Assembly: GCA_000004695.1 (NCBI GenBank)
Contig: CM000152.2
Coordinates: forward strand, 1,184,001-1,248,000
DNA: 64,000 bases
Origin: Dictyostelium discoideum
Lineage: Eukaryota
Reading direction: 5' to 3'
Each line of letters begins with the position of its first letter. The stretch's first letter is position 1. The notes under the pieces were generated by a model. That model did not search any database. It worked only from the letters and a program-made list of their open reading frames with translations, and was not told where the DNA came from. Shown piece by piece: positions 5,573 to 62,725 of the stretch. A program made the translations under genes and the position numbers.

Positions 5573-6165
5573 TGATTATGATTTTTATAAAATAAAAAAA
5601 ATTGTAATATAGATTTTAAATTGGAAAATAAAAATAAATATAAAGGAAAAAAGGAATTTTTTTAAAAAAAAACAAATAAATAAATAATATTATTATTGTG
5701 TGTTTGAGTATAACCTATTTTTTTATTTTTTTTATTTATTTATTTTTTTTTTTTTTTTAAAAAAAAAAAAATTATATTTAAAAATATATAATAATAGTAA
5801 TGATAATAATAATAATAATGATAAAAATAATAATTGATAATAAATAAATATTTAAATAATAATAATTGTTAGTTATTTTGATAGAGATGATAAATAATTA
5901 TATTATTTTTTTTTTTTTTTATTTGTTTTTTTATTTTTTTTTTTTTTTTTTTTTTTTTAATTAAAAAATTTTTAAAAATTAAAAACAAAATAATAAATTT
6001 TTAAAATATAAAAAAAAAAAATAAAAAATAAAAAAAAAAAAGGGTTAAAAGAGTGGTGAGTGTGGGTGGATTGAGTATGACTAATTTGTGTTTAATTATC
6101 TGTTTTTTATTTATGAATTACTTTTTTGGATTCGCCTTATGTGAGAATGTGAAAAAAAAAAAATT

Positions 6166-6213
<48 letters not shown>

Positions 6214-6388
6214 AAGAGTGATGCTTTTGATTAATTAAAAAAAAAATGCAAATTTACAACAGTTTTCACAAAAAATTTTTTTTTTATGCACCCACCAAAG
6301 TATGAAAGTTTTAAAGTCATCAAAATTTTTTAATTTGAAGAATTAAAAAAAAAAAAAGAAAAAAAAAAAAATTGGTGAAAAAAAAATA

Positions 6389-6449
<61 letters not shown>

Positions 6450-6539
6450 AAAATTACACAAATTTTAAAATTAAATATAAAAATATTAATGATGACGGAT
6501 ATCCGATTGAGTGTGTGGTTGTGAATTGCATAAATAAAA

Positions 6540-6580
<41 letters not shown>

Positions 6581-6859
6581 GTGGGTGTGGTGTGGTATTT
6601 ATTTAAACAATTGCCAAATTATTATTTATTATTGAAAAGTATTGGTTTCCAAAATGAATTAAAAATCTATTGATTCGCTAATGCAATATATCTACATACA
6701 ATGTAGCATATGTATTGTTTTATTTTTGGTGGTATATATTTGTGTGTGTGTATATATGTGTGTGTGCATATGAGTGAAAATGAGTGGAAATGAGTTGTTT
6801 TTAAACATTGTGATATATATTTATTTCTAAAATTAAAATTTAGTCCTTACTTTTTTATT

Positions 6860-6891
<32 letters not shown>

Positions 6892-7006
6892 TTTTTCTTC
6901 TTTTATTTGTATTAAATAAATTAATTTGTTTATCTGATTCTAATTAAAAGAAAAATGAAAAAAAAAAAAAAAAAAAAAACTTTTAATTTTAAAAATTTAA
7001 TTTAAA

Positions 7007-9823: not shown

Positions 9824-11937
<2,114 letters not shown>

Positions 11938-26757: not shown

Positions 26758-27911
26758 TCAATAAAAAAATAATAAAAATAATAAAAAAAAAAAAAAAAAA
26801 AAATAATAATAATAATAATAATAATAGTTTATATTTATATTTAAAATAATAACACCTTTTTTTATTATTTATTTTTTTTTATTTTTATTTTTTTTTTAAA
26901 AAACACTTTTTTCTAAACTTTTCAAAAATGTATTAAAGTAATTTAAAAAAAATTTTTTAATTGTCATAAATATAACTCATATTATCTTTAAAAAATTTAG
27001 TAAACAGATTTGAGTGAATATTCTTTGACACTTTTGATGTGGTTTATTTAAATCTCATTTTAATATGATAAAAAAAATAAAAAAAATAAAAATTATAAAA
27101 TTTATTAATAAATATTTATTATTATTTATTATAATTTGCATTTACCCCTTTTATCAATAAATTTGTAATTATAGTAAAAAAAAAAAATAAATAAAAAAAA
27201 AAAAACAATCTGATTTAAATCAAATTATTATAATAATAAAAAAATATAAAAATCAGTTTCATAAAAAATATGTAAACTAAAATCTATTAATTTTTTAATA
27301 ACCAATCATTAAATATTAGAATTAAATTAATTATATTAATAATAATAATAACAACTATTTATATAAATTTAGAGATTTGAAACAATGATTGGTTTTTTTT
27401 TTTTTTTTCAAAAATAAAATATATTTTAATAATAATATTTTATTACATTGAAATTAAAAAAAAAAAAAAAAAAAAACAATGAAAATTAAATATTATTATA
27501 ATATTATTATTTATTTAATAATAAATAAACCTCATATTCAATAATTCTTAATACTATATATCCTAATCTATCTTTGGTATGGACTTCAAAAAATCTTTTT
27601 TTAAAATGACCATAGGAAGATTCTACAATAAAATTATTTATTTATTTTTAAAAATGCATGATATTTCTCGTTTAGTTTGCAAAAGCAAATAAAAAAAAAA
27701 TAACAATTTATTTGAAAGTGAATTTTAGGTGTGGGTGTTTCATACATTTTTGTATGCATATGTTGACAAAATAGAAATAATTTTTATTTTAATTTTAGTT
27801 TTTTAAATTATTTTATTTTTTTATTTTTTATTTTAATTTTAATAATATTTCGAAAATAGCATCATCTTCTGAAACTGTTTCAAATAATTATTTATTATTG
27901 TATTTTTATTT

Positions 27912-40697: not shown

Positions 40698-41450
40698 CTG
40701 GGTTGGGGAAAATAAAAAGAATTTGACGATTTTTTTTAAAAAAAAAAAGATATTTTTAAAAAAAAAAAAAAAAAAAGTAAAAAATGATTTATTTTAAATT
40801 TTTTTTTAATATGGATTTAGAATATAAATATAGAATATCAAAAATACCCAAAATGATATAAAATATAAAAAAAATGAATGAAACCATAATGATTTTCCAA
40901 TTATTTGATTTTTAGAATTTAAATATTTACTTTTCATTTTTTGTAATTGTTTTTTTTATTTTGAAGGACAATGATTAGGGAATAAATTTTAGATTTTTAT
41001 GGAAAAAAATTTTTTAATTTGATTTGTTTATTGAATTTATTTATTTTTGATTTTTAAATTAAATCTGGATTATTTTATTTGTTTTTTTTTTCAATACATT
41101 TTATTTTCTTTTTTTTTTTTTTTCATTTTATTTTCATTTTTTAATATTCATCTATTTTATTTTATATTTATTCTTTTTTTATTTTTTTAAAATGCTATAA
41201 AGGGATGATTAAATAAAAAATAAAAATAGAAATAAAATTAAAATAAAATTAAAAAGATTTGGTTTCCTTTTTTTTTTTTTTTTTTTTTTTTTTCCACTTT
41301 TTATTTTTTTTTAAATTTGTTTTTTTAATTTTTTTTTTTTTAATTTTTAAATTTTTTTTTTTTTTTTTGCTCTAAAAAAAAAGATGTTATTATTATAAAT
41401 TGAAACACTATAAAATAAAAAAAAATTAAAATAAAAATAAAATAAAAACA

Positions 41451-42525
41451 ATGTTACCGAATAATAGTCCATTTTCACCTTCATACATAAGTGGTAATAA
41501 TAATAATAATAATAATAATAGCAAAAATGAAAGATCACCACCGCCACCATTACCACCAAAACCACAACAACTCCATATAAATGATTTAGGTAGTACACCC
41601 ATTAAAAAACCAATCAATAATTCATCTATAAACACACCAGATAATAAAAATAAAAATAACAATAATAATAATAATAATAATGAACAAAAACAACAACAAC
41701 AATTTAGTTATAATTCAACACCAGTGTCAACACAAAAAAATAATACTACTACTACCACCTCAACAACAGCGACACCATCACCATCTGGATCGAAACCTTC
41801 TCTAATTAAACCACGTACTCCATCATCTATTTTTAATAATTCTAGTATTAATAGCATGAATGGTAGTAAATACAATAATTTAAATTTTAATAATAATAAT
41901 AATAATAATATACCTTCATCAGCGCAACCAAGTAATATTGGTGAAGTTATACTTGAAGAATTAGTTCCAACTAATGATTCTGACTATAGCAATAAGAATA
42001 ATTTTCCTTCTTCACCATTAACACCTGCTAATGGAATGAGAAGTACTTCTAAAACACCTCGTAGGTGGAGGTTAGTACCTGCAAATTGCACTTGTTTACT
42101 GGTATGTAATTTTAATTTTAATCAATTATTGTACATAGTATATTCTTTACCATATACCAATCTTTGTAACTACTAACAATTATTATTATTATTATTTATA
42201 ATAATAGCATGAAAATAATTTAAATAGTAGTGCAAATACTAATGCAAACAACAACAACAACAACAGCAGCAGCAATAATAATAACAACAACAACAGCAAT
42301 AATAACAACAATTCATCAAGCTTTTGTCCTAGATGTAGTCAACAAATAAATAGTGATGATAATAATAATAACAATTCAAATTTTGGTAATTTAGATGAAG
42401 CATTTAAATCAAATTATAGCGTTAATAGTAGAAATAATTCAAATATAAATAATAATAATAATAACTTTAATAACAGTGGTGGTACAGGTTTGAATGGACT
42501 TAATAATAGTAGTAGTAGTAAAAAC

Positions 42526-42573
<48 letters not shown>

Positions 42574-43075
42574 TTGAATGGTGGATTTAATAGGTCATCA
42601 TCAACAACAACAACTACCACAGCCAATAATTTTTCATATCATACCCCATTAAAAAAGGTAACGTATAAAGTTGAATGTACTGGTGATTTTGAAAGAGAAC
42701 TTGATCTTTTAAAGAATGAAGTTAGTGAATTGGAAGATGAATTTGGTTTATTAAAATTAAACTCTTCATTAAATAAAAGTCATGGTCCAATTACTACAAA
42801 TTCAACTTCAATTTTAAATGATTATAATAATCTACACAACCATCAACAACAACAACAACAACACCACCACAATAATCAAAATAATCATAATAATAATAAT
42901 AATAATAGTCATAGTGGTATTAATACTAATAGTACTGATAATAGTACTAATATACCATTTAATAGAACATCATCTACTTCTTCCACTTCAAAATCACCAT
43001 TTTTTTCAAATTATACCTCATCATATTCAATTCCAAATAATAAACTACAACAACAACAACAACAACAAAAAGGTG

Positions 43076-43154
<79 letters not shown>

Positions 43155-44665
43155 TGAAGATAAAGTTCAAGAAGTTGAAAAAGATGATGAAAATAAAATT
43201 AAAAAATTTACAATAAATAAACCATATCAATATGAATTTAAAAGTAATGGAACATCAAGTAAAAATAATTTATTAGAACAAATTAGTAATTTAATTGATG
43301 ATTTAGAAAAGGAAAAGAATGAATCAGCAACTATTAAACAAGAGAGGAATGAATTTGAAAGATTAATGAAAGAACTTGAGAAAACTTTAGCATTAAAAGA
43401 GAGAGACATTACTTCTATCAAACAATTGAATCTACAAATTGAACAACAATTGATAGAGAAAGAGAAAAGTACAATTCAACTATTGAATCAATTGAAACAG
43501 TATCAAAATGAATTGATAGAGAAAGCAGTGGATTTAGAGACATTGAAAGAATTGGAGGTTGAAATTTACTCTATTAAAAATCAATACAATGAAAAGATTA
43601 ATGAACTATCTGAAAAGAATCAGCTATTACATCAAAATGAAAAGGAGATTCAACAATTGAATAATAACATCCAAAGGATGAGACTAGAGTTAACCAATCA
43701 AGAGAAAGCCGAGCAATTACTATTGGAAATTGGCAAACTAAAGAAATACATCACCGATTTAGAACATTCCTCAAAAACACTTTTAGAAAATGAATTTTTA
43801 AAATACCAATCACTAAAACAGCAATCAGACTCTGAGAAACAAAGATCAAATGATACAATCAGTCGATTGGAGCTAACAGTCGCTCAAAGGGAGAAACAAA
43901 TTCAACTATTAGAGAATGAAAAAATTGGTAAGATTTTAATTGATAAATTAGAATTTGATCAATTGAATCAAGAGATGACTTTAGCATTACAACATCTCTC
44001 TGAATTGGATATTGATCATAATCAATTGAAACATGATTATAATACTTCACAAGAACAACTTAATCAATTACATTTAGATAATCAACAAATTAATCAACAA
44101 TTATTAGATCAAAAGAAATTAATTAATCGTTTAAAATCTGAAAATGATGATATGAAGGAAAGATTATCAAAAGTTCATTTCATAGTTCAAGATTCTCCAA
44201 AAAAACAATTATCACAACATCAATTAAATCAAATTTATCAAACTCCTTATAGATCTTTAAATTTTTCAAATTCACCTTTAAATAATAATTCTAATAATAG
44301 TAATATTGATAATAAAATAAATCAATTATCTTCCTCTTCTTCCTCCTCATCACCAACAAATATTAATACTAATAGTAATAGTGGTAATAGTGGTGTTAGT
44401 GGTGGTATTAATAATTTAGATAATACCAATAACAATACCAATAATAATACCAATAATAATAGTATTAAAGTATTAAATTTTAAAGAATCACAATCAACTT
44501 CTGAAAGTATTTTCAATTCAGTATTATCAGAACATTCTACTATTTCAAATGATGATAATAATAATAATAATAGTAGTAATAATAATGATAGTAATAATTC
44601 AATTAACCAATCATTAACTCCAATTACTCCAATGTCTTTACCAAAATTAAATGGATTTTTAAATC

Positions 44666-44741
<76 letters not shown>

Positions 44742-45450
44742 TAAAAATAATAATAATAGTATCACTTTTAATATTCAAAATGATGTAAATAAAACTCAAA
44801 AACAAAATGAAGATTCAATCGTCAAAAATACAGAATATCAAATTCAACATGATGTAGATCAAAATGGTATTCATGAAAATGATAACAATCATAACAATCA
44901 TGATAATGATAACAATGATGACAATGATAACAATGATGACAATGATGATCATTTTGTTTCTGAAGAAGACTATCGTAAATATATAAATAGTGATTCAAAT
45001 CAACAAGATGAAGAATATGAACAAGAATATGACCAACAACTTTATCAACAAGATTATCAACAAGAATATGAACAAGAATATGACCAACAACAAGAAGGAG
45101 AAGAACAAGAAGAACAAGAAGAACAAGAACAAGAAGAACAACAAGAAGAAGAACAAGAACAAGAGGAGGAACAATTAGAATATAATCACAATCATGATGG
45201 TAATGAAGAACAGGAAAATTATCACAATAACCAAGATGATGAAGATGATTATATCAGTGAAGAACAAGATGATTGGAATAATAGCCTCAATTCAAAAAGT
45301 AGTAGTAGATTAAATGGTATACGAAGAAGAGATGATGATGATGATAAAGATAATGATAAAACTCTTGATGATGAATATTTTAATGACAAAGATTTTGAAA
45401 TTAATGTTGACGAGGAAAAAGATGAAGAAAAAGACGACCGAGGTTTATAA
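41451..45450 (+). CDS. Large Asn/Gln-rich coiled-coil protein with an acidic C-terminus, function unknown. Exons 41451..42101 and 42208..45450.
   Basis: Exon 1 is 'MLPNNSPFSP...SPPPPLPPKPQQ...ANCTCLL' with donor CTG|GTATGT at 42102. The intron holds 'aactactaacaa' and the acceptor aatAG at 42207. Exon 2 is in phase 0 and stays in frame through the track ORF 42490..45450, whose listed start is a TTG codon. Residues encoded around 43200-44200 are heptad-rich ('LLEQISNLIDDLEKEKNESATIKQERNEFERLMKELEK...'). Confidence 0.55.
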
Positions 45451-45631
45451 ATTATTTTTTTTTTTTTAAAAGGAAAAAAAAACCCTCAAAGAAAACCTCT
45501 AAAAAAAAAAATATATCAAAAAAAAAATATAAAAAATAAAAAAAAAAAACAGTTTTGTTGTACAATTAATATCTCCAATCAATCACGAAATTTCTCACCA
45601 AACGAGATTTTTATTAAAGTCGGTTGGACAA

Positions 45632-45663
<32 letters not shown>

Positions 45664-45697
45664 TCATATCCATATCTTGGCCAAAAATTTAGGGAAA

Positions 45698-45917
45698 AAT
45701 GATTGGTTTGAAAAAAATCCACACATGGTTTAAAAAAAAAAAAAAAATAAAAAATAAATAAAAAATAAAAAAAAATAACAAAATAAAATATCCTAATCAA
45801 ATGATTGGTTTGAAAAAAGTCCACACATGGTTTTAAAAAAAAAAATAATTTTTAATGTCTAAAGTAGGTACATAATACTTTTTTTCTTTTTTTTTTAAAC
45901 CATGTGTGGACTTTAAT
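45698..45917. repeat. Direct plus inverted repeat cluster of the element 'AATGATTGGTTTGAAAAAA(A/G)TCCACACATGGTTT'.
   Basis: Copy A lies at about 45698-45733 and copy B at about 45791-45826 (direct orientation, one A/G difference). Its reverse complement 'AAACCATGTGTGGACTTT' lies at 45897-45914. Copy B and the inverted copy are separated by about 70 nt of A/T-rich spacer, so they could form an 18-bp perfect stem. Confidence 0.85.
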
Positions 45918-46142
45918 AAAAAAGGCTTTTTAGTTTAATTTTTTTTATTTTTTTTTTAATTTAAATTTTATTTTTATTATCCTTTTTTATAAAAAAAAAA
46001 AAAAAAAAAAAGTAAAGAAAGTAAAAAAAGTATTTTTTAGTAAAGAAACTTTTTTTTACTTTTTTTACTTTTTTTACTTTTTTTTTTACTTTTTTTTTTT
46101 ATTTTAAAATAAATACTTAAATAAATATAAATAATTTTAAAA

Positions 46143-46578
46143 ATGGTTAATAATGATAGAGAGTTATTTTTAAATATAGTTTGGAAAAGAGTAAGAGAAA
46201 AAAAAAAGAAAAAAAATAATAATAAAAAAAAAGAAAAAAAAAAATAATAATTTAACAATTAAACTCAAATTTATTTTTTTATTTATTTTCTTTTATTTTT
46301 TGTCTCTCCCTTATTTTTGTTTTTTTTAGATACATGAAATAACAAAAGAAATATCTATAATTGCTGATAATTTAAGTAAAACAGAAATTTCAAAAGAGGA
46401 AAGGGATTTTTTAAAAAATAATATAACAGAATATGCAAATCAATTAAACAACTACTTAAAAATGGTTGATATTTTAATTAATAATTCAAATGAAAATAAT
46501 TTTCCAAACGAATTATATCAAGAAATTTCATTCAACAAAATTTGCCAAGAAAAGAGTGAATATCGAGTTGGGGAATAA
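46143..46578 (+). CDS. Small hypothetical protein of about 98 aa. Exons 46143..46190 and 46330..46578.
   Basis: 'MVNNDRELFLNIVWKR' is followed by donor GTAAGA at 46191 and acceptor tttAG at 46329. It continues 'IHEITKEISIIADNLSKTEISKEERDFLKNNITEYANQLNNYLKMVDILINNSNENNFPNELYQEISFNKICQEKSEYRVGE'. No recognisable domain. Confidence 0.4.
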
Positions 46579-46924: not shown

Positions 46925-47362
46925 ATGAAACCAAATGTATTCTTATTTTTAGCTTTAATTTCAATATTATTATTCTTTAAAATTGCTTCATCTTTAGAGA
47001 TGGAGATGCAGATCACATGTAACCCAAATTGCTCTGGTACCACAGCATCTTTTAATACGACCACAGGTATGAATCTTCTTTTAAAAATTTTTTTTTTTTT
47101 TTCTTTTTTTTTAGTTTTTTATTTTTTATTTCTTTTTCATTATTAATTAATTATTTGAATAAAAAAAGGTTGCACATCTGCATCTGATTTTTGTACAAGA
47201 TTACCTCTTTACAACTATATCCATGCATATACATCATCAATTTCTGTTCAATTATTTACAGATATGAATTGTCAACAACCAGCATCAACCGCCTTTACTA
47301 TTCAATGTAATCAATGTACGATCATTGGACCAATGCATTATACATTATTAACATGTATTTAA
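46925..47362 (+). CDS. Small secreted cysteine-rich protein of about 112 aa with 8 Cys. Exons 46925..47066 and 47169..47362.
   Basis: The signal peptide is 'MKPNVFLFLALISILLFFKIASS'. The mature part reads 'LEMEMQITCNPNCSGTTASFNTTTG|CTSASDFCTRLPLYNYIHAYTSSISVQLFTDMNCQQPASTAFTIQCNQCTIIGPMHYTLLTCI'. Donor ACAG|GTATGA is at 47067 (phase 1) and acceptor aaaAG at 47168. Confidence 0.5.
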
Positions 47363-59678: not shown

Positions 59679-60853
59679 TTATTTATCTCTTTTATAAATT
59701 TTTGATAATATTTTTAAAAATACGCTTGGAGGTAAATAAATACAAGTGGTTTTAATTTTATCTATTAAAAAATTGTAACTTGTATTTTCATAATCTTTGA
59801 AAATTTTTTCAAGATTAATTTCTTTATAAATCTTTTTTACAATTTCAACATCAGTTGGATTATCGAAACCATAATGTTTTTTTAATAAATTGATTTGGTC
59901 TGGAGTACCATTGAGAATTGCTTGACAAATCATCCATGAACATTTATTCTCTTCAATATCTCTACCGATTTTACCAAATACTTCTGGTGAACCATAACAA
60001 TCTAAGAAATCATCTTGAACTTGAAAATATACACCCATTGGTAATAAAATATCTTTTGCTGTTGTAAATGCTTGTTCATGGTTTATTTTGGACATTAACA
60101 TTGCTAGTGCAACTGGAAAAAAAAATGAATAATATGCTGTTTTATATTCAGTAATTCTAGTATGACTATAAAAAATAAAATTAATTAATCACACAGACAC
60201 ACATATGTTAATTAAATCTAAAACATATTAATAATAATAAAAATAATAATAATAATTATAAATACAAACTTTTTTAAATTAATTGATGAGAAATCACCTC
60301 TAATTGGTTGAGTTGTTAAATCTAATAATTGACCTAATTGAGTTTGAAATCCGGTTTTATGGAATAATTCTACAATATTTAAATAGTAGGATTCATTTTT
60401 AAAGTATTTTTCAAGTAAAATAAAAACACATGATTCAATTATAAAGGAATCATTAATTGCAGCTAAACCAACTTCTTGATCAGAGTTTGGTCTCTTTTGT
60501 TTATACCAACATGGTTTACCCCTTCTTTTTAGTGACTGATCCATTATATCATCAGAGACCAAATAGCATGCTTGAAATATTTCAACACACCAACCCAATG
60601 TTTGGGCTTGGAAAATTTCATGTCTTGTTAGAGCTCTACCTTCATTTAATGATTCCAATGATTCAAGTACACTAATTCCTCTATTCATTTTTCCACCTGT
60701 TGAATTTGCTTTTATCACGGTTTCAATCCAGTGGATTGATTCTTTTGGAAAATCAATCTTTTCCAATTCCTTTTTAATTTCATTTAATAAAATTGGGAAC
60801 AAATTAGCAAATTCTTCCAAAACTTCTTTATCATTCTTTTTCAAATTATTCAT
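59679..60853 (-). CDS. Farnesyl diphosphate synthase (polyprenyl synthetase), paralog A. Exons on the minus strand: 60853..60270 and 60165..59679.
   Basis: The first Asp-rich motif is 'LGWCVEIFQACYLVSDDIMDQSLKRRGKPCWY' and the second is 'FQVQDDFLDCYG'. 'GKIGRDIEENKCSW' and the C-terminus 'KIYKRDK' fit the FPPS consensus. Donor AA|GTTTGT is at 60269 (phase 2) and acceptor tatAG at 60166. The junction reads '...[33 protein letters not shown]...'. Confidence 0.8.
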
Positions 60854-61548: not shown

Positions 61549-62725
61549 TTATAAATCTCTTTTATAAATCTTTGATAATAATTTAATGAAAACTTCTTGT
61601 GGCATAATTCTAACTGATTTGATCTTACTGATAAGGAAAGCATAGGATTCATCTTCATAATCTTTGAAGATCTTTTTGAGACCAATTTCACCATAAATCT
61701 TTTTAACTAATTCTACATCAGTTGGATTATCGAGACCATAATGTTTTTTTAATAAATTGATTTGTTCTGGTGTACCATTGAGAATTGCTTGACAAATCAT
61801 CCATGAACATTTATTCTCTTCAATATCTCTACCAATTTTACCAATAACAGCTGGTGAACCATAACAATCTAAGAAATCATCTTGAACTTGGAAGAATTCA
61901 CCCATTGGTAATAAAATATCTTTTGCTGTTGAAAATGCTGGTGTACTAGTAATACCTGCCATTAACATTGCTAATGCAACTGGTAAATAAAATGAATAAT
62001 ATGCAGTTTTATATTTAACAATACGACGATAACTTTTAAATAAAAAAAAAAATATATTAGTATTTTGTATATATAATAAATATTTAATATATATATATAT
62101 ATATATATAATCTAAAAATATATATTTACGTATTTAAAGTGAATAATGAGAAATCACCTCTATTTGGTTGAGTTGTTAAATCTAATAATTGACCTAATTC
62201 AGTTTGATAAGATGTTTCATGGAAAATATCTAAGATATCAGCATAGTATGGTTCATTTCTAAAGTATTTTTTAATGAGGATATAGATGCAAGATTCCAAG
62301 ATGAAAGAATCATTAATTGCAATTGAACCAATGGTACCATTGTTTGAGATTGGATTTGCTTGTCTATACCAACATGGTTGACCTCTACGAGTGATCGATT
62401 GATCCATAATATCATCAGCAACTAAAAAGAATGCTTGAAGCCATTCGACACACCAACCTAAAACATTTGCTAAAAAGATTTCGCTACGTGATAATTGACG
62501 ACCTTCAACTAATAATTGAAGTGAGTGGAGTACGGTGAGACCACGATTCATTTTACCACCTGAAACATTAACATTGATCATCTTTTCAACCCATGCAATT
62601 GTTTGTGGTGGCATGTCCATACCTGGTAATTCCTTTAAGATTTCATTGGTTAAAATTGGGAAAATCTCCACAAAATCTGCTAATTCTTCTTTTGCTGTCT
62701 TTATTGGTGCTGATGTTTGGTTCAT
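61549..62725 (-). CDS. Farnesyl diphosphate synthase, paralog B, the second member of the tandem pair. Exons on the minus strand: 62725..62130 and 62032..61549.
   Basis: 'MNQTSAPIKTAKEELADFVEIFP...' aligns with the mature N-terminus of human FPPS ('MNGDQNSDVYAQEKQDFVQHF'). It carries 'LGWCVEWLQAFFLVADDIMDQSITRRGQPCWY' and 'FQVQDDFLDCYG'. Donor AC|GTAAAT is at 62129 and acceptor aaAG at 62033. The junction reads '...[34 protein letters not shown]...', collinear with human 'RYKSIVKYKTAFYSFYLP'. The intron position matches paralog A. Confidence 0.8.

Follow-up and report, generated by a model that had tools for sequence, protein, structure and literature searches.

Correction of quasi-palindromes, a short template-switch mutation of the Ripley strand-switching type, offers one point of comparison for the locus reported here. 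Clusters of NF-Y-type CCAAT boxes in eukaryotic promoters offer another; these consist of CCAATCA-type boxes in either orientation, several per upstream region, and their usual position is -60 to -100 from the start site. In D. discoideum, MITEs and small DNA elements of the thug-S type are characterized by short inverted termini and a lack of coding capacity. In the developmental promoters of Dictyostelium, G-box or CA-rich elements belong to GBF, whose response element reads (T/G)G(T/G)G(T/G)G(T/G) (PMC2257962), and the known GBF targets have closely spaced site pairs. Young dictyostelid miRNA hairpins are intergenic, long, perfect or nearly perfect, and lineage-specific, with a T-tract upstream (PMC6161686, PMC11014262), and long near-perfect hairpins are regarded as typical of newly evolved amoebozoan miRNAs (PMC11014262). 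The repeat described here shares traits with these systems. As judged from the sequences compared, it is probably a young, lineage-specific DNA repeat in the 5' spacer of DDB_G0278811 that acts, if at all, at the DNA level, possibly by adding transcription-factor sites, and its recent origin is most likely attributable to a copying accident during replication.

The window, by which we mean the whole 64-kb stretch of DNA that was analysed, belongs to chromosome 3 of D. discoideum AX4, and its composition is typical for the genome (13-38% G+C, with peaks in coding parts). The spliced ORF beginning at 46143 is 100% identical to DDB_G0278811, and a neighbouring ORF of 1045 aa is eIF5B. The repeat resides in a 692-bp spacer between two + strand genes, namely a large Asn/Gln-rich coiled-coil gene whose stop codon is at 45448-45450 and DDB_G0278811, whose ATG is at 46143; it starts ~250 bp 3' of the stop codon and lies 230-430 bp upstream of the ATG. 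The A+T content is 84.6% in the spacer and 81.8% in the interval originally flagged, slightly below the more than 85% quoted in the preliminary description. The features, with positions counted from the first nucleotide of the window, are as follows.

42490-45450, + strand: final long ORF of the Asn/Gln-rich coiled-coil gene that precedes the spacer; the stop codon occupies 45448-45450.
45551-45632, no strand assigned: conserved block 1, for which all six Dictyostelium species could be aligned; context, outside the repeat.
45632-45658, + strand: run of 27 T, separating block 1 from the repeat region.
45697-45746, + strand: c1 block, the first direct-repeat unit, composed of AAATGATTGGTTTG with ATTGG at 45702-45706, the core and an A-run.
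45714-45731, + strand: 18-mer core of c1, AAAATCCACACATGGTTT, with one mismatch to c2.
45799-45848, + strand: c2 block, the second direct-repeat unit, laid out as the first, with ATTGG at 45804-45808.
45816-45833, + strand: 18-mer core of c2, AAAGTCCACACATGGTTT, the left arm of an 18-nt perfect inverted repeat.
45834-45896, no strand assigned: the 63 nt between c2 and c3, composed of an A-run, AATGTCTAAAGTAGGTACATAATAC and a T-run.
45887-45914, - strand: c3, the inverted copy, which reads T10 plus AAACCATGTGTGGACTTT on the + strand.
45903-45909, + strand: TGTGTGG heptamer matching the GBF consensus; two further copies, at 45719-45725 and 45821-45827, are on the - strand.
46028-46046, + strand: AAGTATTTTTTAGTAAAGA, ~100 nt upstream of the DDB_G0278811 ATG and followed by T-tracts.
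46143-46578, + strand: DDB_G0278811, an orphan gene of 98 aa (exon 1 46143-46190, intron, exon 2 46330-46578).

The feature is a real three-copy DNA repeat, two copies direct and one inverted, and lies far beyond chance: the 18-mer occurred three times at up to 3 mismatches vs 0.06 times in shuffled sequence, which excludes chance for the three copies. In first-order Markov randomisations of the window, the number of inverted repeats whose arms reached 12 nt was 0-1. When perfect arms had to be 14 nt or longer, to include a 12-mer with four or more G/C and to be no more than 300 nt apart, c1, c2 and c3 formed the only inverted repeats in the 64 kb. The core of c2 and the segment 45897-45914 of c3 are exact reverse complements over 18 nt. 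This pair had been recognized correctly, and the inverted arm had been placed where we find it, but the c2 arm had been located at 45809-45826, 7 nt too low, and the loop estimated at about 70 nt is in fact the 63-nt stretch listed above. The third, direct copy with its single A/G change was likewise real, although c1 and c2 are 102 bp rather than about 90 bp apart, and the longer block that they were said to share spans 34 nt (45698-45731 vs 45800-45833; 33/34 identity), with the A/G change as the sole difference. Extended further, the direct repeat of c1 and c2 measures 50 nt at 94% identity (45697-45746 vs 45799-45848). What had been missed is that c1 and c3 make up a longer perfect inverted repeat of 24 nt with a 145-nt spacer (45718-45741 with 45887-45910); it exceeds the c2/c3 pair because an extra T of c2 is absent from c1, so that c3 pairs with c2 through 45897-45914 and with c1 through 45887-45910. 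No further copy of the core motif was found within the 64-kb window, and a full-text literature search for the motif strings returned unrelated primers only.

Several elements flank the repeat within the spacer. Block 1 contains a forward CCAAT box (CCAATCA, 45575-45581) that is kept in 5/6 genomes, a palindrome, GAAATTTC, and the two near-palindromes TTGTACAA and TTGGACAA; we rejected it as a structured RNA on account of its weak consensus fold (-5 kcal/mol, one covarying pair) and as coding sequence on account of a 2-nt indel between species. T-tracts stand before transcription start sites in D. discoideum (PMC6161686), so the T27 run may mark the site of a transcription start. The repeat lies ~115-315 bp upstream of the AAGTATTTTTTAGTAAAGA element, which was unchanged in four genomes, differed by 1-2 changes in three others, and is central in a 45-nt, 91% inverted repeat (45988-46032 with 46057-46101). 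From its position alone, the AAGTATTTTTTAGTAAAGA region is probably the core promoter of DDB_G0278811. The gene itself was found only in close relatives, with two relatives among 1.8 billion representative proteins in a remote homology search, and no Pfam domain was detected in its product. Because of this small number of relatives and the missing domain, the idea of a cell-cycle CCAAT/CHR promoter for DDB_G0278811 had no anchor and was dropped.

The orthologous spacers were retrieved from six assemblies, namely a second D. discoideum, two 'D. cf. discoideum' genomes (FIY and FIZ), D. citrinum, D. dimigraforme and D. firmibasis. Gene order was the same in five further genomes of Dictyostelium; the additional D. 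discoideum assembly was 99.75% identical to the window and hence uninformative, and the D. purpureum locus that was examined exhibited neither synteny nor block 1. The divergence from AX4 at 4-fold sites of eIF5B amounted to 7.2% for FIY, 9.2% for FIZ, 19% for D. citrinum, 21% for D. dimigraforme and 26% for D. firmibasis, and the tree (AX4,FIY),FIZ was backed by shared derived states at ratios of 15:4:4 in eIF5B and 14:4:2 in the spacer. All three copies were present in FIY, c1 and c3 but not the c2 core in FIZ, and c3 only in D. citrinum and D. dimigraforme, where it had diverged at about the neutral rate. In these two species the c1 and c2 cores were absent, with a mismatch of 43-63% at the corresponding places vs 19% at 4-fold sites. 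The c3 of D. citrinum reads AAACCATTTAAGAACTTT (14/18) and that of D. dimigraforme AAACCATCAAGAGTCTTT, the recognisable parts being AAACCAT...CTTT plus the flank. D. firmibasis lacked c3 and carried a different small palindrome, TACCACCTGT-AAAC-ACAGTGGTA.

The FIZ genome shows how the arms correspond. Its c1 reads TTTAAATAAAGTCC[C]CACATGGTTTAAAAAAAAA and the reverse complement of its c3 plus flank reads TTTAAATAAAGTCC[T]CACATGGTTTAAAAAAAAA, that is, a 34-nt inverted repeat with one mismatch, whereas D. citrinum displayed only a 17-nt inverted repeat, GGTTT-A12 / T12-AAACC, at these places. The flank of c3, CTTTATTTAAATA, was common to FIZ, D. citrinum and, nearly, D. dimigraforme, which indicates that it is the ancestral state, and the flank of AX4 and FIY is derived. 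At the c2 position, the FIZ sequence ATGATTGTTTTTAAATG resembled ATGATTCTTATTAAATG of D. citrinum. Taken as a historical sequence, these distributions suggest that c3 is the oldest copy, that c1 followed and that c2 is the youngest; a deletion of c2 from FIZ is a less likely alternative. In D. citrinum, FIY and FIZ, the orthologous site aligned with the 63-nt stretch between c2 and c3, which is therefore ancestral sequence rather than an inserted cargo.

These observations can be accommodated by a stepwise scheme. An old quasi-palindrome of the form GGTTT-A(n)...T(n)-AAACC would have been present at the outset, with c3 and its flank as ancestral sequence, as the six-genome comparison suggests. 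The next event, before the D. discoideum complex diversified, would have been the copying of c3 and its flank in inverted orientation beside an existing reverse CCAAT box, giving rise to c1 and to the 34-nt inverted repeat; the sequence patterns point to strand or template switching at the quasi-palindrome as the likely event. In the clade of AX4 and FIY, the c1 block may subsequently have been copied directly to a site 102 bp downstream to yield c2, for which a pre-existing partial similarity, ATGATTG...ATGGTTT, could have provided the anchors. Finally, in D. discoideum proper, a change from T to A at position 8 of c3 would have rendered both inverted repeats perfect; this position is T in D. 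citrinum, FIY and FIZ and A in AX4. The scheme is reminiscent of quasi-palindrome correction in that the imperfect inverted repeat of D. citrinum corresponds to a much longer, near-perfect one in FIZ (34 nt, 1 mismatch), in that one arm complements the other arm plus the ancestral flank, and in that several adjacent bases appear to have been replaced together. It differs in that the process is deduced here from six genomes and would have been followed by the direct copy c2 and by single-base perfecting in AX4. The effect of these events, if any, would be exerted at the DNA level, through a changed number and arrangement of candidate protein-binding sites upstream of DDB_G0278811, with two NF-Y-type reverse CCAAT boxes and three GBF-type TGTGTGG heptamers as the putative additions.

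Position 8 of the 18-mer was also peculiar in being hypervariable. All four bases occurred there among eight copies, implying at least 3 independent changes vs ~0.3 expected, and the other 17 positions together accounted for one change in total. This hypervariability is a point against the explanation favoured here.

The arrangement of two perfect arms had also been likened to a TIR-like footprint, and the 18-nt arms, which flank 63 nt devoid of an ORF, would on this reading be the TIRs of a DNA transposon that is small and non-autonomous, as in MITE-like or thug-S type elements with their short inverted termini and absent coding capacity. We nevertheless consider such an element very improbable. 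The outer flanks (...TTTGAAA and AATAAAA...) form no target-site duplication, there being no common direct repeat in ...GGTTTGAAA | AAAGTCC... and ...GGACTTT | AATAAAAAAGG, and no other copy was found in the 64-kb window or, outside the orthologous site, in ~87 kb of related loci (six loci). A search of JGI metagenome contigs with a 23-nt pattern returned 0 exact matches, a result that is uninformative on the AX4 genome. More importantly, the relatives do not present an empty site: D. citrinum and FIZ hold c3 and the internal sequence without c2, D. citrinum also without the c1 core. Species without the left arm carry the right arm and the internal sequence at the orthologous site, so the structure was not inserted as a unit; the different ages of the arms, which were acquired separately, the ancestral inter-arm sequence, the missing target-site duplication and the lack of another copy in the window and related loci jointly argue strongly against a MITE, and the TIR-like interpretation is rejected. 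Even less probable is a micro-ORF. The ATG at 45699 and 45801 opens a short frame that runs through the conserved block and could encode MIGLKK[I/V]HTWF..., but short ORFs are common in A-rich sequence, the inverted copy contains no such frame, the ORF length is not kept, and all but one of the seven changes that separate the c1 and c2 copies in AX4, FIY and FIZ are non-synonymous, namely I/V, G>D, H>R, H>P, K>N and a lost stop codon. This predominance of non-synonymous change led us to reject the coding reading of the direct repeat; a mobile element and a peptide remain very improbable even when taken jointly. A structured RNA was also considered. A transcript through 45700-45920 would fold c3 onto c2 or c1 and could thereby serve as the precursor of a young or proto-miRNA or of another hairpin RNA. 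The folding that had been proposed as a check did return a strong hairpin. For the c2/c3 fold the predicted energy was -38.6 kcal/mol over 136 nt (z = -6.4), with the 18-bp perfect stem and an A/U extension, which lies inside the limits applied to D. discoideum miRNAs, namely less than -0.2 kcal/mol per nt and at least 60% duplex pairing (PMC6161686). The fold persisted in FIY (-35.9 kcal/mol, z = -4.3) and, between c1 and c3, in FIZ (-61.5 kcal/mol, z = -7.6), the T27 run resembles the tracts that precede the start sites of pri-miRNAs, and the change in c3 of AX4 restored perfect pairing. However, the opposite strand folded equally well (-37.5 kcal/mol, z = -6.7), as is a property of any inverted repeat, and the high hairpin potential of FIY and FIZ reflects the small number of substitutions that have occurred. 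The three-genome alignment contained 0 pairs changed on both sides; both FIY and FIZ carry a mispair at position 8, the sole variable pair, FIZ has no c2 arm, and the orthologous region of D. citrinum folded no better than shuffles (z = -0.1). Searches for known RNA genes pointed in the same direction. Rfam 15 gave no match in the 64 kb at the gathering level and, at E <= 10 in 45300-46300, only chance-level matches (E >= 0.24), none of them on the repeat; ARAGORN reported no tRNA; the nearest copies of the DUSE ([AT]CCCA[ACT]AA, ~60 nt upstream of dictyostelid ncRNAs) were at 40846 and 58970, with none within several kb; and the Class I TGTG box (AAATGTG) was not matched at the repeat. The only chromosome-3 loci of one miRNA catalogue are those at 3.66 and 3.74 Mb (PMC6161686), and the stem strings were absent from the supplements of both miRNA studies (PMC6161686 and PMC11014262). 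The locus thus resembles young dictyostelid miRNA hairpins in its intergenic location, its length and (near-)perfect pairing, its restriction to one lineage and its upstream T-tract, but differs from them in being absent from the catalogues searched and in showing no structure-preserving evolution. With equal folding of both strands, no compensatory change and no Rfam or catalogue match, the small-RNA precursor that had been suggested found no support, and we judge a hairpin RNA of any kind to be unlikely. A more specific version, a hairpin-RNA gene at birth, would have its 34-nt stem created by templated inverted duplication in the common ancestor of the complex, perfected in D. discoideum, and transcribed from the T-tract at 45632-45658 as a very young source of DrnB-pathway miRNA or siRNA, expressed too weakly to have entered the catalogues; we find it slightly more doubtful still, although it would, if true, offer a concrete and datable mechanism for the rapid gain of miRNAs reported in dictyostelids.

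The remaining interpretations retain the templated DNA repeat that we favour and differ as to whether it has been selected. If the repeat works at all, the most likely way would be a cis-regulatory effect, which is plausible because each copy carries TGTGTGG and a reverse CCAAT box forms part of an over-represented 11-mer. In its explicit form, this reading posits a selected module on which an NF-Y-type CCAAT factor and a factor for GTCCNCACATGG / TGTGTGG, possibly GBF, control DDB_G0278811; we advance it tentatively, as a possibility well short of even. The position of the repeat, 230-430 bp ahead of the ATG and within the 5' spacer, speaks for such a module, as does the presence of the motif in either orientation, which is possible for binding sites. 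Each direct unit opens with AATGATTGGTT, in which a reverse CCAAT box has flanks of NF-Y-like type, and this 11-mer appeared 5 times vs 0.17 expected in the window, an independent inverted pair at 27300/27384 included. The CCAAT pentamer has favourable flanks in TGATTGG at 45700 and 45802 and in CCAATCA at 45575. In AX4, FIY, FIZ, D. citrinum and D. firmibasis the boxes were retained, although where they stand and how they are oriented has turned over: these 5/6 genomes all keep the ATTGG of the c1 position, and D. citrinum and D. firmibasis carry a forward CCAAT at the c2 position instead. Like NF-Y clusters in eukaryotic promoters, the locus therefore combines several CCAATCA-type boxes in either orientation that are kept with turnover in five species; unlike them, the boxes lie inside a duplicated block and are candidate sites by sequence alone. 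At least 2 core copies were present in each of the three genomes of the D. discoideum complex, and D. citrinum and D. firmibasis had small palindromes with CCACCTG at equivalent sites. We did not retain CACATG/CACCTG as E-boxes for bHLH proteins, because bHLH factors are not known from Dictyostelium. The resemblance to GBF elements extends to the TGTGTGG in all three AX4 copies, an exact consensus match, but heptamers of this type are common (47 in 64 kb), and the sites are 82 and 102 bp apart, in contrast to the closely spaced half-sites of known targets. Moreover, the variable position 8 falls inside TGTGTGG, and the GBF pattern is broken in 3/5 copies of FIY and FIZ (TGTGCGG in c2 of FIY, TGTGAGG in c3 of FIY and FIZ). 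The core motif has no second locus in the 64 kb and is absent from the next relatives, so that any function would be very young.

The substitution counts also argue against selection on the copies. Their overall divergence from FIY, 4/88 (the raw count of 6/88 includes two alignment artefacts at the end of c2), was comparable to the 46/590 of the rest of the spacer and to the 7.2% of 4-fold sites; the copies change about as fast as 4-fold sites, constraint was not detected in them, and selection is not demonstrable. G/C positions were slightly better kept in the copies than elsewhere in the spacer, with 27/28 vs 43/53 for FIY (p = 0.09) and, for c1 plus c3 in FIZ, leaving out the missing c2, 16/17 vs 33/53 (p = 0.014), which may hint at some constraint. 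For the repeat as a whole, we would put effective neutrality just short of an even chance and a selected regulatory effect somewhat below even, with the reservation that the share assigned to neutrality may be too high in view of the G/C counts just given. The paired transcription-factor sites envisaged in the preliminary description therefore persist in part: the 5' spacer, the CCAAT 11-mer and the GBF-type heptamers make them plausible, whereas the selection that they would entail is not discernible.

In itself, a single repeat confined to one lineage and lying ahead of a rapidly evolving orphan gene is of little importance. Its value lies in being a worked example of how a GC-containing perfect inverted repeat in an AT-rich spacer, neither an RNA gene nor a transposon, may be generated by templated copying at a quasi-palindrome that was already present, with steps of origin that are datable on a six-genome tree. 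Scans of AT-rich genomes should accordingly expect templated copying as a source of 'striking' inverted repeats. Such events would yield new hairpins, the raw material for the fast turnover of dictyostelid miRNAs, as well as new arrangements of transcription-factor sites.

At position 8 of the 18-mer that makes up the repeat 5' of DDB_G0278811 (45714-45731, 45816-45833 and 45897-45914), all four bases (A, G, C and T) were seen among eight copies from three genomes, a spread that takes three or more independent changes at this one site. The changes there amount to about 10 times the expectation from 4-fold sites, and none of them is compensatory. This variability may mark a hot spot, or it may reflect a single arm mismatch that has been repaired repeatedly. 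Where AX4 has the repeat, D. firmibasis carries at the equivalent position a small palindrome of its own, AATACCACCTGT-AAAC-ACAGTGGTATT (L006, ~11445-11475, minus strand), and the D. citrinum sequence reads AAACC-ACCTGATA-GGTTT. The CCACCTG core common to both palindromes may represent an older element related to CCACACATG.

Features of the spacer, its neighboring genes, and the rest of the window
6061-6069, 6582-6595 and 6741-6765: GBF-type heptamers, (T/G)G(T/G)G(T/G)G(T/G), densely clustered
27300-27310 (-) and 27384-27394 (+): inverted pair of the extended CCAAT 11-mer AATGATTGGTT, 84 bp apart
45551-45632: conserved block, 80 nt, alignable in all six Dictyostelium species
45988-46032 with 46057-46101: inverted repeat, 45 nt, 91%, within 45988-46101
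46143-46578: DDB_G0278811, 98 aa, one intron
46925-47146: DDB_G0278813, the gene after DDB_G0278811, signal peptide, named by primer match to PMC7078664
~59750-60560 and 61651-62458: two ~800-bp stretches, 79% identical, ~1.9 kb apart

The conserved block lies directly past the probable poly(A) region of the upstream gene, is followed 3' by a T27 run, and showed mismatches of 4.9%, 2.4%, 12%, 19%, and 22% between species in the six-species alignment. It contains a CCAAT box and the palindrome GAAATTTC, along with two near-palindromes of the form TTGTACAA/TTGGACAA. A coding reading was ruled out by a 2-nt indel, and the consensus RNA fold was weak (-5 kcal/mol). A conserved element, regulatory or belonging to the 3' end, is the probable reading of this block.

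Closer to the gene, the inverted repeat lies 5' of DDB_G0278811, an orphan matched only in the closest Dictyostelium relatives (79% and 68% identity). One arm of the inverted repeat is A-rich with GTAAA motifs, the other T-rich with TTTAC motifs, and its center is occupied by the near-invariant AAGTATTTTTTAGTAAAGA (46028-46046), about 100 nt 5' of the ATG of DDB_G0278811. Rfam yielded only chance-level matches across 45988-46101, and the arrangement around AAGTATTTTTTAGTAAAGA looks like core-promoter architecture.

Elsewhere in the window, the two similar ~800-bp stretches have the appearance of a gene duplicated locally in tandem. The spacer with the GBF-type cluster is strongly G-skewed (GC skew +0.38, 6001-7000), and its G-box arrangement is more canonical than that of the 18-mer repeat. 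The inverted 11-mer pair, located in another long AT-rich spacer, is independent of that repeat, whose direct units carry this 11-mer too. With five occurrences in the window versus 0.17 expected, AATGATTGGTT is suggested to be a recurrent D. discoideum promoter motif.
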